Positions 44,273 through 49,133 of a DNA stretch of 64,000 bases are shown here, in pieces; positions within the stretch are counted from its first letter, which is position 1, and each line of letters opens with the position of its first letter. This stretch comes from Longimicrobiales bacterium (lineage in GTDB: Bacteria; Gemmatimonadota; Gemmatimonadetes; Longimicrobiales; Gaopeijiaceae): the NCBI GenBank assembly GCA_965203485.1, contig OZ241892.1, positions 3,136,001 to 3,200,000 of the forward strand, in the 5' to 3' direction. A model generated the notes under the pieces. That model made no database searches and was not told the DNA's origin. It saw nothing but the letters and a program-made list of their open reading frames with translations. A program made the translations under genes and the position numbers.

Positions 44273-45022
44273 ATGGCCGGAAGCAAGGACAAGTCCCGCC
44301 TCGCGTTCTTCGGCGCGACCATCGTGCTGGCGGCCCTCGCGGCCGCCGCTGCTTTGCAGGTCGTGCGCGGCCAGGCGCGGGTCACCGAAGTCCACGAGCA
44401 GAGGTACCGGACGTACCAGCTCGCCAACCAGCTTCGCCAGTCGTCGGACGACCTCACGCGCATGGCCCGCCTGTACGCGGTGACGGGCGATGTCCGGTAC
44501 AAGGAATACTTCGAGCGGATACTCGCCATTCGGAAGGGCGATGCCGTTCGCCCGGCCGACTACGGGAACGCCTACTGGGACCTCGTCGTGGACGCGCGCG
44601 AGTACCCGCAGGTAGAGGAGGGCGCCGAAGCCGTCGCGCTCGCGGACCTGATGGCCGAAGCGAGCTTCTCGGCGGACGAGCTCGGTCTGTGGCAGGAAGC
44701 AGAGAACGCTTCCGACGAACTGGCCGCGATCGAAACCGAGGCCATGGGAGCCGCTCCGGACGAACTCGCCGTTGCCGGGGCGAACCAGCACGACGCGGTC
44801 AAGGAACTGCACGGCCCCGACTACAACCGGCGGAAGGCGCGGATCATGCAACCCATCGCCGACATGCACTCGATCCTGGAGGAACGGACGGCGGCGGCCG
44901 TCGAGAACGCGGCGCACCGGCACGACACGGCGTCTCATGTGCTGATCGTCGCCCTCGCTCTCCTGCTCCTGGTCAATGCAGGCGCGCTGGTTCGAGCGGT
45001 CGCGGGCTCGCGGACGACTTAG
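44273..45022 (+). CDS. Stand-alone TM-sensor domain-TM protein
   Basis: LRQSSDDLTRMARLYAVTGD..Y..IL.IR.G helical sensor motif flanked by two TM helices; stops a few residues after TM2. Confidence 0.7.
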   Translation: MAGSKDKSRLAFFGATIVLAALAAAAALQVVRGQARVTEVHEQRYRTYQLANQLRQSSDDLTRMARLYAVTGDVRYKEYFERILAIRKGDAVRPADYGNAYWDLVVDAREYPQVEEGAEAVALADLMAEASFSADELGLWQEAENASDELAAIETEAMGAAPDELAVAGANQHDAVKELHGPDYNRRKARIMQPIADMHSILEERTAAAVENAAHRHDTASHVLIVALALLLLVNAGALVRAVAGSRTT

Positions 45023-45222
45023 GCCTGCGAGCGGTGCGCCGTTTCCGAACCCCGGCCCGGCTTGCCTCGGACGGCGGCGAATCGCTACCGTAGCGGGGCA
45101 GGCGGCTCGGATCTTGCGGACGCCTGTGACGATGGGCCGCGCGGTCCAGGAGCGCTTGGCGCGTTCTTCGGTGGTGCGTGGCCATGCGAGTTCCTCAGGA
45201 CCAGCCAACGCGGAGGTTCCCC

Positions 45223-45786
45223 ATGCTGGAGGTTGAAGCCCTCTGGGTTCCGTTGCTCGTGTCCGCCGCCGCCGTCTTCGTAGCGAGCGCGCTGGCGTGG
45301 ACGGTGATGCCCCACCACCGGCCGGACTTCGCTCCGGCCGACGACGAGGACGCGCTGATGGACGCGATCCGCAAGTGCGCCCCCAAGCCCGGCATGTACT
45401 ACTTCCCCTACGCCGACCACAAGTCGGAGCACACCAAGGAGTACCGGCAGAAGGTCGAGGCCGGACCCGTCGGCATCATTCGCGTCCGCGACCCCAAGTC
45501 CGCGCTCAACATGCCGGGCGCGATGATCAAGTCGTTCGTCTACAACTTGGTCGTGGCGACGCTGGTCGCGTACGTCGCCGGCGGCGCCCTCGGCCCCAAC
45601 GCCGCTTTCTGGGACGTGTTCGGCACCGTGGGTCCCGTGACGTTCCTGGCCTACGCGCTCTGCAGCGTGCACGAGAGCATATGGATGGGCTTGCCGCGAA
45701 GCGCCGCGATCAAGCAGGGAATCGACGGCTTCGCCTACGCGCTGATCACGGCGGGCGTCTTCGCGTGGCTGTGGCCCGTCGCATGA
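45223..45786 (+). CDS. Conserved 4-TM membrane protein, hypothetical
   Basis: RBS GGAGG, hydrophobic helices, PHH..D and PGMYYFP motifs; ATGA overlap with the next gene. Confidence 0.75.
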   Translation: MLEVEALWVPLLVSAAAVFVASALAWTVMPHHRPDFAPADDEDALMDAIRKCAPKPGMYYFPYADHKSEHTKEYRQKVEAGPVGIIRVRDPKSALNMPGAMIKSFVYNLVVATLVAYVAGGALGPNAAFWDVFGTVGPVTFLAYALCSVHESIWMGLPRSAAIKQGIDGFAYALITAGVFAWLWPVA

Positions 45787-46259
45787 GCGACGTCGTCTAC
45801 GAAGCGCGAGTGCGGATAGAGCGCACGCGGGGGCCGCACCGCCTGGCCTATCTGCCGGCCCGCGAAGCGCCTGTGGAGTTCGGCGTGCACGGCCCGATCG
45901 CCGCTCACTACGGGGCGAGTCCCGTCAACGAAGTCACGACGACCCTGGACTACGTGGTGGCCGCCACCGGCGGCTGACTGACGGGAACCTTGGGCGGCGT
46001 GCTGGAGGCACGCGGGATCGACGCGTCGGACGGCAAGCTGGTGGCGGACGTGTCGGGCGAGATCGGCAAGGACGACGGCGTGCTGGTGATTCGCGCCATT
46101 CACGTGAGGTACCGGCTCGATGCCGGCGATGCCGATCCCGAGATCGTCCGGAGGGCCCACGAAATTCACGCCGCCCGTTGCCCGGTCTACAGAACGCTCA
46201 GCGGTTGCGTCGAGATCACGACGGAGCTTGCGGGCGCCCCGGGCGGCGTCCCCGCCTAA
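45783..46259 (+). CDS. OsmC/Ohr-like protein, probable selenoprotein (UGA=Sec at 45975-45977)
   Basis: One frame: ..TTLDYVVAATGG-TGA-LTGTLGG..HAARCPVYRTL; the UGA sits at the first conserved OsmC Cys; downstream hairpin. Confidence 0.85.
45978..46013 (+). promoter_or_regulatory. Putative bacterial SECIS element
   Basis: Stem GCGTGC (45997-46002)/GCACGC (46008-46013) with loop TGGAG, 25 nt after the UGA. Confidence 0.65.
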
Positions 46260-46307: not shown

Positions 46308-47045
46308 ATGAGACCCCATCTCTTGATCCTTGCGGCGGCGGCCGTCGCGACAACCCAAGGATGTGCCACCGGGCGGGGAACTCCGCCGGACGGCCATGGC
46401 GGGGAGCCGCGAGCCCGGTCCGGCGTCGAAGCCGACGGCGCCGACAAGCCGGCCCCGGTCCGGCCCAGCCCCGAGACCGCGGCGCGCCTGGACGCCCTCT
46501 ACCGCGCCCGGGCGGACAGCGCGAGAGCCCGCTACCATCCCGCCGACGTGCACTTCATGACCGGCATGATCGGTCATCACGGACAGGCGCTGGCCATGGC
46601 CGGGTACGCCCCCGAGAACGGCGCGAGCCACTCGATTCGCATCCTTTGCGCCCGCATCATCAACGCCCAGAAGGACGAGATCGCCGTCATGCAGCGGTGG
46701 CTTCGCGAACGAGGCCGACCGGTGCCCGAGATCCACATCGAGAACGGTCGCTTCGCGGTCCGCGGTCCCGCTCACGCCATGCACATGCCGGGGATGCTCA
46801 CCGCCGAACAGCTGGACGAGCTCCGGCACGCCAAGGGCCGCGACTTCGACCGCTTGTTCCTGGAGTACATGATCATGCACCACGAGGGCGCCGTGACCAT
46901 GGTCAGCGAGCTGCTGGCCACCGACGGCGCCGCTCAAGGCGACTTCGTCTTCAAGCTGGCTTCCGACATTCAGGCGGACCAAGGCTCGGAGATCGACCGC
47001 ATGCAACGCATGCTGGACGCGATGTCGCCGAACCCGTCTCGCTAG
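46308..47045 (+). CDS. DUF305 (ferritin-like) lipoprotein
   Basis: FMTGMIGHHGQA, MPGML, FLEYMIMHHEGA, DQGSEIDRM; lipobox TQGC. Confidence 0.88.
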   Translation: MRPHLLILAAAAVATTQGCATGRGTPPDGHGGEPRARSGVEADGADKPAPVRPSPETAARLDALYRARADSARARYHPADVHFMTGMIGHHGQALAMAGYAPENGASHSIRILCARIINAQKDEIAVMQRWLRERGRPVPEIHIENGRFAVRGPAHAMHMPGMLTAEQLDELRHAKGRDFDRLFLEYMIMHHEGAVTMVSELLATDGAAQGDFVFKLASDIQADQGSEIDRMQRMLDAMSPNPSR

Positions 47046-47096: not shown

Positions 47097-49133
47097 ATGA
47101 ACGCCGTCTCGTCCCTTCGCCGTGGGCGCGGCGCCGCCCTTCCCTGCCTTGCCTTCGGCTTGGCGGCCGCGGGATGCGCGCAGAACGTCGCCACCGGCGT
47201 CCCCGCGGCACCCGGCGTTTCCGCCGCGTCGATCTCCACGCCTTCGCTCCTGCCCGTGCAGGAGGCGGCCGACCCGCCGTCGCCCGACCTCCGCGTGGGT
47301 CTGTCCGCAGGCCTCATGGACGCGGAGGAGGCGATCTGGAACCTGCGCCTCCTGTCGGCCACTCCTCCTCAGGAAGCCTTCGTGGGCAGCACCAACTCGG
47401 ATTTGGCGTTCACCGGCCCCTACGCCATACAAGGCAACTACGACGGCATCCAGGTCTGGGACATCTCCGATCCGTCACGTCCGGAGTCCGTGATCACCTA
47501 CGTGTGTCCCGCCTCCCAGAGCGACGTGTCGGTCTACGGCGACCTGCTGTTCGTGTCGGGCGAAGGCTTGGGCGGCCGGCTGGACTGCGGCGACCAGGGG
47601 GTCGAGGAGGCGGTCAGCCACCACCGCCTGCGGGGCATTCGCATCTTCGACATATCCGACATCAGCGCGCCCGAGTACTTGGCCAACGTCCAGACCTGCC
47701 GGGGTTCCCACACGCACACCGTGCTCGAGCATCCCGGCGACGACGACAACGTCTACATCTACGTTTCGGGCTCGGCCCAGGTCCGGCCGGCGGAAGAGCT
47801 TGCCGGCTGTTCGGGCCTGTCGCCCGACGAGGACCCGAACTCGGCGCTGTTCCGGATCGAGGTGATCCGCGTGCCCTTGGACGACCCCGCCAGCGCGGCC
47901 ATCGCCAGCTCGCCCCGGATCTTTCACGACTTGGTGGCCCCGCCGCGCCACGGTCCGTCGGCCGCCGACCTGGCCGAGATCGAGGAGGCCCGCGCCAGGG
48001 GCGCCTTCGTCGTGGAATTCGGCGGGCAACCGCAAGTCGTTCCCGACCAGGTCGCCCAACAGTTCCTGGCGCAAACCGTGCAGGCACGAGGCGGGGAAGG
48101 AGCTCCCACCGCCGCCGACAGCGCCGCCGTCCGCGAGCGGCTCGACGCCATGGCCGCGGCCGCCGCGGCGCAAGGGGAGGACGAGGACGACGGTCCGGCG
48201 CCCGGCCCCACCCAGTGCCACGACATCACCGTGTATCCGGCGATCGGCTTGGCCGGCGGCGCCTGCGGGGGCTACGGCCTGCTGCTGGACATCCGCGACC
48301 CCGTGGACCCGAAGCGCTTGGCGGCGGTGGCCGACTCCAACTTCTCCTATTGGCACTCGGCCACCTTCAACAACGACGGCACGGCGGTGCTGTTCACCGA
48401 TGAATGGGGAGGCGGAGGCGCGCCCAAGTGCCGAGTCGGCGATCCACCGGAATGGGGCGCCAACGCGATCTTCACCATCGAAGACGGAGACATGCGCTTC
48501 CAGAGCTACTTCAAGATTCCGGCCCCGCAGACGCCGCAGGAAAACTGCGTCGCCCACAACGGCTCGCTGATCCCTGTCCCCGGGCGAGACATCATGATCC
48601 AAGGCTGGTACCAGGGCGGCGTCTCGCTGATCGACTGGACCGACCCGGCCAACCCTGTCGAGATCGCCTACTTCGACCGGGGACCGGTGAACCCGGAGCA
48701 GATGCAGATGGGCGGCAGCTGGTCGGTCTACTGGTACAACGGACTCATCGTGAACTCGGAGATCGCGCGTGGACTGGACATCTTGGAACTGACGCCGAGC
48801 GAAGTCCTGACCCAAAACGAAATCGACGCGGCCAACTCGATTCAGCTGGACCAGCTCAACTCGCAGGGCCAACCCATCTTCGAATGGCCGACCACGTTCG
48901 CGCTTGCACGGGCCTACGCCGACCAGCTGGATCGTTCCGGCGGACTAGGACGCTCCCGGCTCGCCGAGGTGCGGGGCGCGCTGGCCGCCGCGGAAGCCGC
49001 CTCCGGCGCATCCCGGCGCAACGCGCTCGACACGCTCGCCGCCGAACTCGGCCGGGACGCCGCGGGTTCGGCCGACTCCTCCAAGGTCGAGAAGCTGGAA
49101 GACGCGGTTCGGCGCTTGGGCGAAGCCGGCTGA
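47097..49133 (+). CDS. LVIVD-repeat beta-propeller lipoprotein
   Basis: NSDLAF, SQSDVSVYGDLL, CRGSHTHT, CHDITVY, CVAHNGS; lipobox AAGC. Confidence 0.85.
   Translation: MNAVSSLRRGRGAALPCLAFGLAAAGCAQNVATGVPAAPGVSAASISTPSLLPVQEAADPPSPDLRVGLSAGLMDAEEAIWNLRLLSATPPQEAFVGSTNSDLAFTGPYAIQGNYDGIQVWDISDPSRPESVITYVCPASQSDVSVYGDLLFVSGEGLGGRLDCGDQGVEEAVSHHRLRGIRIFDISDISAPEYLANVQTCRGSHTHTVLEHPGDDDNVYIYVSGSAQVRPAEELAGCSGLSPDEDPNSALFRIEVIRVPLDDPASAAIASSPRIFHDLVAPPRHGPSAADLAEIEEARARGAFVVEFGGQPQVVPDQVAQQFLAQTVQARGGEGAPTAADSAAVRERLDAMAAAAAAQGEDEDDGPAPGPTQCHDITVYPAIGLAGGACGGYGLLLDIRDPVDPKRLAAVADSNFSYWHSATFNNDGTAVLFTDEWGGGGAPKCRVGDPPEWGANAIFTIEDGDMRFQSYFKIPAPQTPQENCVAHNGSLIPVPGRDIMIQGWYQGGVSLIDWTDPANPVEIAYFDRGPVNPEQMQMGGSWSVYWYNGLIVNSEIARGLDILELTPSEVLTQNEIDAANSIQLDQLNSQGQPIFEWPTTFALARAYADQLDRSGGLGRSRLAEVRGALAAAEAASGASRRNALDTLAAELGRDAAGSADSSKVEKLEDAVRRLGEAG

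Follow-up and report, generated by a model that had tools for sequence, protein, structure and literature searches.

The window analyzed here, a stretch of 64,000 nucleotides (nt), comes from the genome of a Longimicrobiales bacterium of the Gemmatimonadota (GenBank assembly GCA_965203485.1, contig OZ241892.1, positions 3,136,001–3,200,000 of the forward strand; G000:C1:3136001-3200000 in our own numbering), which is assembled as a single contig of 3.56 Mb with 69.3% G+C. Its plus strand holds, at 45783–46259, a complete gene of 158 codons plus TAA that is predicted to encode a selenoprotein of the OsmC fold. One frame runs from the ATG at 45783 to the TAA at 46257–46259, and its sole break is a TGA triplet at codon 65 (45975–45977; translated context LDYVVAATGG-U-LTGTLGG, where U stands for selenocysteine, Sec; peptide spanning the codon, VAATGG-U-LTGTLGGVLEAR). 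A mechanical list of open reading frames (ORFs) cuts this frame into a piece that ends at 45977 and a piece at 45990–46259. A preliminary description made from the DNA letters had read the two pieces as one frame split only by the TGA, and the same frame was recovered here from the sequence and the ORF list.

With Cys in place of U, the protein matches the Pfam OsmC family PF02566 over residues 53–148 (55.5 bits; gathering threshold, 27.5). The AlphaFold2 model has a mean predicted local distance difference test score (pLDDT) of 94.2 and places residue 65 within a long helix, residues 54–76. When the model is compared with the PDB by Foldseek, the top 30 matches are all OsmC, Ohr or OsmC-like proteins, with template modeling (TM) scores of up to 0.74 normalized by query length and up to 0.82 by target length. 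Downstream of the TGA lie two further features of the gene: a predicted selenocysteine insertion sequence (SECIS) core at 45997–46013, supported by covariation and by published constraints, and at 46179–46181 the TGC codon of an invariant second, resolving-type cysteine, Cys133, supported by the family alignment and by solved OsmC structures.

Redox Residues of the OsmC Fold

The preliminary description had placed the UGA at the catalytic Cys of an OsmC-like peroxidase. In alignments with homologs and solved structures, the column of predicted Sec65 does coincide with the first, peroxidatic Cys of OsmC: in a family profile, the U/C column falls on the first Cys of OsmC from Thermus thermophilus (1ukk; E = 4.4e-6) and from Escherichia coli (1nye, 1qwi), and C133-P-V falls on the second Cys (G-C-P-V-S) of 1ukk and of the E. 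coli protein. The second Cys motif, described earlier as intact, is present as C133-P134-V135. Both redox positions of the OsmC/Ohr thiol peroxidases are thus retained, U65 as the first and C133 as the second. In these enzymes, according to the passages of PMC8945050 that deal with them, the first Cys is peroxidatic and the second resolving, a nearby Arg and Glu are required, and regeneration is lipoyl-dependent.

Besides C133, the residues P134, G34, D56, G68, G72, L74, Y110, and H129 are invariant in an alignment of 34 sequences. In a profile alignment that excludes the N-terminal Arg region, the invariant Asp56 stands opposite the second Glu in the "EE" pair of OsmC. The catalytic Glu of OsmC presumably lies one position from the Glu that aligns with Asp56. 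Residue 20 is Arg or Lys in all aligned family members; the N-terminal Arg region of OsmC falls outside the profile alignment.

Conservation of the UGA Codon

A six-frame protein search of 61 genomes (the organism's own and 60 relatives) returned matches in 34 of them. An in-frame TGA is present in each of the 41 matches at E ≤ 1e-17 and absent from five of the seven weaker matches, which are distant OsmC homologs (E ≥ 2.8e-7). The genes extracted for comparison were those at loci L022–L049, with L035 inspected by hand, together with a second copy in the genome itself (L052); L050 and L051, which match other OsmC genes weakly (31.6 and 26.5 bits), were left out. In 29 of 29 extracted genes (28 by pattern and L035 by hand), at identities down to 37%, the TGA occupies precisely the codon-65 column. 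A wider sample of the phylum (301 genomes) gave a match at E ≤ 1e-10 in 85 genomes, spread over families f1 (42/47), f7 (21/23), f4 (12/125), f5 (5/69), f3 (3/6), and f9 (1/3), with 0 in the rest; among the matches listed, the sole one free of TGA spans residues 1–47 and ends short of codon 65.

Among 13 full-length database homologs, the codon-65 column holds Cys in eight (P0003, P0011, P0012, P0014–P0018), Trp in four (P0005–P0007, P0010), and Leu in one (P0004). The four proteins with Trp are all from JGI metagenomes, and their Trp is probably the same TGA translated under code 4 by the gene caller. P0004 and P0007 share an additional Cys in the motif T-G-C-P-E-E. A pattern scan of species-representative genomes added 66 Cys-form loci from Acidobacteriota, Actinomycetota, Chloroflexota, Thermodesulfobacteriota and others; the pattern ended in Cys and could return Cys forms only. 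The pairing of Cys with TGA at one column, which the preliminary description had proposed to look for, is thus found, with TGA in 29 of 29 extracted genes and Cys in eight proteins and 66 loci. It had also held that reads with TGC, TGT or TGG at the site would speak against it: contigs of four public sequencing runs span the site and show only TGA, all of them from one study with at most two samples, which may be the source of the assembly itself.

The Logan contigs of three of these runs (X2–X4) all break at 45991–46021, over the hairpin described below, and are joined there by a linking contig of 31 bases; the break probably reflects how the assembler handles the inverted repeat and not biology. 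A look-up of RNA runs covering the stretch listed none.

A Conserved Hairpin Downstream of the UGA

The predicted SECIS core consists of seven base pairs, six of them Watson–Crick and one a closing U·G, formed by GCGUGCU (45997–46003) and GGCACGC (46007–46013) around the loop GGA (46004–46006); counted from the TGA, the stem starts at 19 nt and the loop at 26 nt. The stem falls in codons 72–78, which encode G-G-V/A-L-E-A/V-R across the family, with G-V-L-E-A-R in the present gene. The preliminary description had reported a perfect 6-bp stem with a G-containing loop 25 nt downstream of the UGA: the hairpin and its G loop stand, and the stem length and the distance are corrected to 7 bp and 19/26 nt. 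For bacterial SECIS elements (bSECIS), a published model (PMC13188914, legend to Fig. 2) gives a loop of 3–9 nt, an upper stem of 4–16 bp, a G in the first two loop positions, 16–37 nt between UGA and loop, and a minimum free energy (MFE) of at most −7.5 kcal/mol. A comparison of this kind had been suggested at the outset, and every value of the present hairpin lies within the constraints in that legend (loop, 3 nt; stem, 7 bp; G first; distance, 26 nt; −9.7 kcal/mol for the hairpin alone). The loop G-G-A with the closing U·G as N1–N2 fits the pattern N1-G-G-N-N2, and a G-first loop is kept in 28 of 28 Sec forms.

Comparative folding recovers the same structure. RNAalifold, applied to 27 aligned sequences, predicts exactly this stem and nothing else (columns 23–29 paired with columns 33–39, counted from the U of UGA). 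An extended lower stem in the MFE fold of the stretch's own sequence was dropped, being absent from this consensus. In the 27 sequences, all 189 stem cells hold standard pairs; sliding the 3′ arm by one to three columns reduces this to 14–70%. Two columns are compensatory (C-G in 24 sequences and U-A in three; G-C in 20 and A-U in seven), and one further pair alternates between U·G and U-A. The combinations that occur are GUG..GCA, GCG..GCG and GCA..GUG, in which a third-position change in an Ala/Val codon is matched by a second-position change between Ala and Val three codons away. Each compensatory change thus joins a synonymous change to an Ala/Val substitution three codons off, a pattern that pairing in the RNA explains and that is hard to attribute to constraint on the peptide.

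The Cys forms provide a further comparison. The full seven pairs are present in 29 of 29 Sec forms (28 scored and L035 by hand) as against nine of 66 Cys forms; 26 of the remaining Cys forms keep six pairs, 17 keep five, nine keep four and five keep three or fewer. Mean hairpin energy is −10.6 kcal/mol in Sec forms and −4.9 kcal/mol in Cys forms, at nearly equal G+C content of the segment (0.69 vs. 0.68). When only genes that encode the same peptide are compared (GALEAR, GALEVR or GVLEAR), the full stem is found in 25/25 Sec forms and 8/37 Cys forms (Fisher p = 1.2e-10, uncorrected for relatedness); CTG encodes the Leu in 25/25 and 14/37, respectively, and a GGA loop occurs in 25/25 and 16/37. 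The codon frequencies of the Cys forms (GGC/GGT in 22/37, GCG in 18/37, GCG in 31/37, CGC in 36/37) predict about nine full stems in 37, and eight are observed; the stem is therefore at chance level in Cys forms and fixed in Sec forms.

One Cys form with the TGT codon, from a metagenome-assembled genome of the Pyrinomonadaceae (L054:1501-1959), retains a perfect stem and the GGA loop.

Selenocysteine Machinery and the Genetic Code

The preliminary description had implied that the machinery for Sec would be found elsewhere in the genome, and all of its parts score above their curated cut-offs there: tRNA-Sec (Rfam RF01852, 77.7 bits; cut-off, 47; called by ARAGORN as tRNA-SeC with anticodon tca), selA (469 bits; 267.9), selB (319 bits; 242), and selD (361 bits; 125). 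The selD gene (L018, G000:C1:2795274-2796197, plus strand) itself has an in-frame TGA at C1:2795304, within the motif H-G-A-G-U-A-C-K, and after it a 7-bp hairpin of its own whose G-first loop reads GCAAG; this Sec-containing selD serves as an internal positive control for the decoding of UGA as Sec in this organism. TGA is also an ordinary stop: 18 of 28 extracted OsmC-like genes end with TGA at the expected C-terminus, as does the ORF directly upstream of the gene, which shows that TGA is not generally reassigned. The 158-residue Sec enzyme of the preliminary description is in keeping with these results, with the TGA/Cys pairing and with the hairpin.

Relation to Known OsmC-Type Families

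OsmC-like selenoproteins were first described from the Sargasso Sea, as three sequences of COG1765 with the motif UxxT (PMC1088965; Zhang, Fomenko and Gladyshev, 2005), and are listed as COG1765/YhfA or PF02566, again with UxxT, in the relevant parts of reviews from 2022 and 2026 (PMC9312934, PMC13188914); the passages of these three papers that mention OsmC speak of the UxxT form only. NCBIfam also holds a model for an "OsmC-related (seleno)protein," NF041052. The preliminary description had likewise said that OsmC-like selenoproteins have been predicted. The present protein shares with those of 2005 the OsmC-superfamily fold, a single UGA-encoded Sec, the existence of Cys-form homologs, a SECIS-type hairpin whose small apical loop contains a G, and the prediction of a redox function. 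It differs in profile score and in motif: against NF041052 (cut-off, 95 bits) it scores 16.4 bits and its paralog 24.5 bits, and its redox motif is U-L-T-G-T (U-L/M-L-G-T in the paralogous clade) with an invariant Gly68 at the +3 position, where UxxT has Thr. Members of NF041052 above 95 bits were found neither in the organism's own genome nor in four genomes of other phyla, and a search of 122 genomes from one class of Thermodesulfobacteriota likewise gave none above the cut-off (best score, 78.4 bits).

Among characterized proteins, OsmC proper (1qwi/1nye, 1ukk) has the same fold, with its first Cys at U65 and its second at C133-P-V, but the present protein carries Sec at the first position, is only 13–20% identical and scores 22.7 bits against the OsmC model TIGR03562, below the curated cut-off of 85.8. 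Ohr (6ebg, 1usp, 1n2f, 1zb9) shares the fold at TM 0.66–0.72 and is described in part of PMC8945050 as using a two-Cys mechanism with lipoyl-dependent regeneration; no Ohr model of NCBIfam matches at E ≤ 0.01, however, and the family profile picks up OhrB (2bjo) only weakly (E = 0.02). The YhfA/COG1765 proteins (E. coli 1ml8, Geobacter 2opl) belong to the same superfamily, and a search with the family profile finds 1ml8 at E = 0.0019. The only PDB sequence match of the single protein is 2opl (E = 0.05), whose first Cys stands in a context like the G-G-C-L-T of this family but which lacks the second Cys at the position of the invariant C133. Judged by sequence, the gene works like the known OsmC-like selenoproteins but falls outside the curated family NF041052; very likely it is an intact selenoprotein gene of a divergent, uncatalogued subfamily within a kind known since 2005.

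Interpretation and Alternative Explanations

We put at roughly 0.9 the probability that 45783–46259 is a single intact gene of the OsmC fold in which UGA65 is decoded as Sec by means of the hairpin, and hold the insertion of Sec at this codon with correspondingly high confidence. The conserved hairpin would recruit SelB with Sec-tRNA(Sec) while the ribosome stands at UGA65, and readthrough would yield a 158-residue enzyme in which Sec65 is the peroxidatic residue and is partnered by Cys133. On the model of OsmC/Ohr, Sec65 may attack a hydroperoxide and be converted to a selenenic acid, which Cys133 would resolve to a selenenylsulfide; an external thiol donor, of the kind of the lipoyl-dependent systems in characterized OsmC/Ohr enzymes, might then recycle the enzyme. 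Chemistry of this hydroperoxide-reductase (peroxidase) type is somewhat favored by the fold and by the two redox positions.

Several observations weigh against this interpretation or limit the evidence for it. The active-site Arg and Glu of OsmC/Ohr could not be placed with confidence in the profile alignment, and no conserved gene neighborhood at the loci of the orthologs points to a reductant. Four of the seven stem pairs are invariant and hence uninformative. On its own, the 66-nt segment after the TGA folds no better than shuffled sequence (MFE z = −0.47; 59 of 200 shuffles fold equally well), so that the case for the hairpin rests on comparison. Among the same-peptide Cys forms, 21 of 37 keep six of the seven pairs and eight keep all seven: GC-rich coding of G-A-L-E-A-R is often close to a hairpin, and part of the stem's conservation is therefore due to coding. 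The compared genomes are related, and the counts and the Fisher test overstate their independence; nor are the contigs of the four runs independent evidence for the TGA.

Three other accounts would do away with the Sec residue. If the TGA were a true premature stop in a pseudogene, or an error of sequencing or assembly, no full-length protein would exist, in agreement with the gene callers and with a database that holds only the 86-residue C-terminal fragment P0002; a decaying gene would hardly keep a TGA at one column in 29 of 29 genes at identities down to 37%, with matches across 85 genomes of the phylum sample, nor would it be expected to conserve both halves as protein and to carry a compensated hairpin, and the contigs of the four runs give no other letter. 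This account is effectively refuted by sequence conservation, and its likelihood is negligible. Translation as two polypeptides, residues 1–64 and a C-terminal piece starting at TTG 45990 or GTG 45999, would make a split OsmC fold; start codons do follow closely on the TGA, and this is where the fragments in the database start. The break, however, would cut the modeled helix 54–76 that bears the active-site residue and would remove a catalytic position retained in every Cys-form homolog, the possible restart codons fall within the conserved stem or next to it, and no split Cys-form homolog occurs among the 66 loci, all of which makes this arrangement very improbable. Readthrough of the UGA by a suppressor or near-cognate tRNA that inserts Trp or Cys, with no part for selenium and with the hairpin as a generic stimulator or pause, could draw on P0005–P0007 and P0010, in which some pipelines do read the codon as Trp. 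It is very improbable nonetheless: TGA terminates 18 of 28 of the same genes, the 66 loci without TGA have Cys and no genuine Trp codon (in a scan whose pattern required Cys), the genome encodes a complete Sec pathway that includes a Sec-containing selD, and the hairpin, with its G-first loop in 28 of 28 Sec forms, fits a SelB-type model.

A further alternative accepts the selenoprotein and questions its chemistry: the product may be a redox protein of the thiol-disulfide or selenenylsulfide kind that acts on another substrate, possibly of the YhfA type. The low TIGR03562 score, the lack of an Ohr model at the threshold given above and the unplaced catalytic Arg and Glu agree with this, and YhfA itself, as described in part of PMC8945050, keeps both Cys residues without the Arg and Glu and has no known activity. 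The best sequence match of solved structure is nevertheless a true OsmC, 1ukk; both redox positions are kept, and the invariant D56 adjoins the position of the OsmC Glu. We consider a non-peroxidase function rather unlikely and prefer a Sec-dependent peroxidase.

Paralog and Origin of the Sec Forms

The genome encodes a second OsmC-like Sec gene on its minus strand (L052, G000:C1:2378278-2378712; TGA at C1:2378532-2378530). Its product is 42% identical to that of the first and has the motif U-L-L-G-T and a second Cys in C-P-T-A, and its TGA is followed at the same offset by the hairpin GCGCACU-GGA-AGUGCGC. Both Sec copies are present in many relatives. A quick maximum-likelihood tree of 93 proteins (28 Sec and 65 Cys forms), unrooted, with the Sec/Cys column masked and with support from the Shimodaira–Hasegawa-like approximate likelihood ratio test (SH-aLRT), excluded L035 and one Cys locus of fewer than 120 residues. 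It places the gene at 45783–46259 in a Sec clade A of 14 rows (SH-aLRT, 90) and the paralog in a clade B (99) of 13 Sec rows with one nested Cys row, L117, from an uncultured bacterium; L037 stands outside both, on a long branch. The nearest Cys-form clades differ between A and B. Four changes of state are needed on this tree, and its well-supported branches force at least two; a single origin of Sec with losses and two separate origins are both compatible with it. L054 and L117 are candidates either for a recent reversion from Sec to Cys or for a state that preceded the SECIS.

The coding of G-A-L-E-A-R in GC-rich codons could act as a "latent SECIS," next to which a change from TGC to TGA could create a selenoprotein, perhaps twice. 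We offer only tentatively the more specific proposal that these genes form a separate OsmC-fold selenoprotein subfamily outside UxxT/NF041052, present across one GC-rich phylum as a pair of paralogous Sec clades and with a SECIS exapted from a coding palindrome. A SECIS that arose in the near-hairpin coding of a GC-rich peptide would be a tractable example of how a switch from Cys to Sec originates.

Annotation, Significance and Neighboring Genes

The gene had been called a hidden selenoprotein, and in the databases it is one: the curated model misses it, and the protein database represents it by P0002 only, the 86-residue C-terminal fragment already mentioned, which is read from GTG 45999 inside the hairpin to 46259 (99% identity over 54% of the query). 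Four of its nearest relatives are likewise represented only by C-terminal fragments (P0008, P0009, P0013, P0019). With gene calls of this kind, and with NF041052 missing the family, the selenoproteome of the phylum is undercounted, often by two genes in each genome. What is known of Sec decoding stays as it is, and the family is of value chiefly for annotation and as a natural pairing of Sec and Cys forms at the peroxidatic site of the OsmC fold: with close Cys-form relatives at hand, it is a system in which the benefit of selenium can be studied, and one that bears on the advantage of selenium in a predicted peroxidase that is neither a peroxiredoxin nor a glutathione peroxidase (GPx).

Upstream, the TGA stop of a hydrophobic, membrane-type ORF of 202 codons on the plus strand (45178–45786; in the ORF list, without a Pfam family in a Pfam scan) overlaps the ATG at 45783 in the sequence ATGA. 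This ORF is kept as a neighbor only in two genomes of the same genus (L023 and L024). The ORF at 44273–45022 is a neighbor at none of the other loci. Downstream on the plus strand lie two genes that do not adjoin the orthologs at the compared loci: 46308–47045 encodes a DUF305 protein (Pfam PF03713, 144 bits) whose N-terminus resembles a signal peptide, and 47097–49133 a protein of 678 residues with a weak match to the LVIVD repeat.

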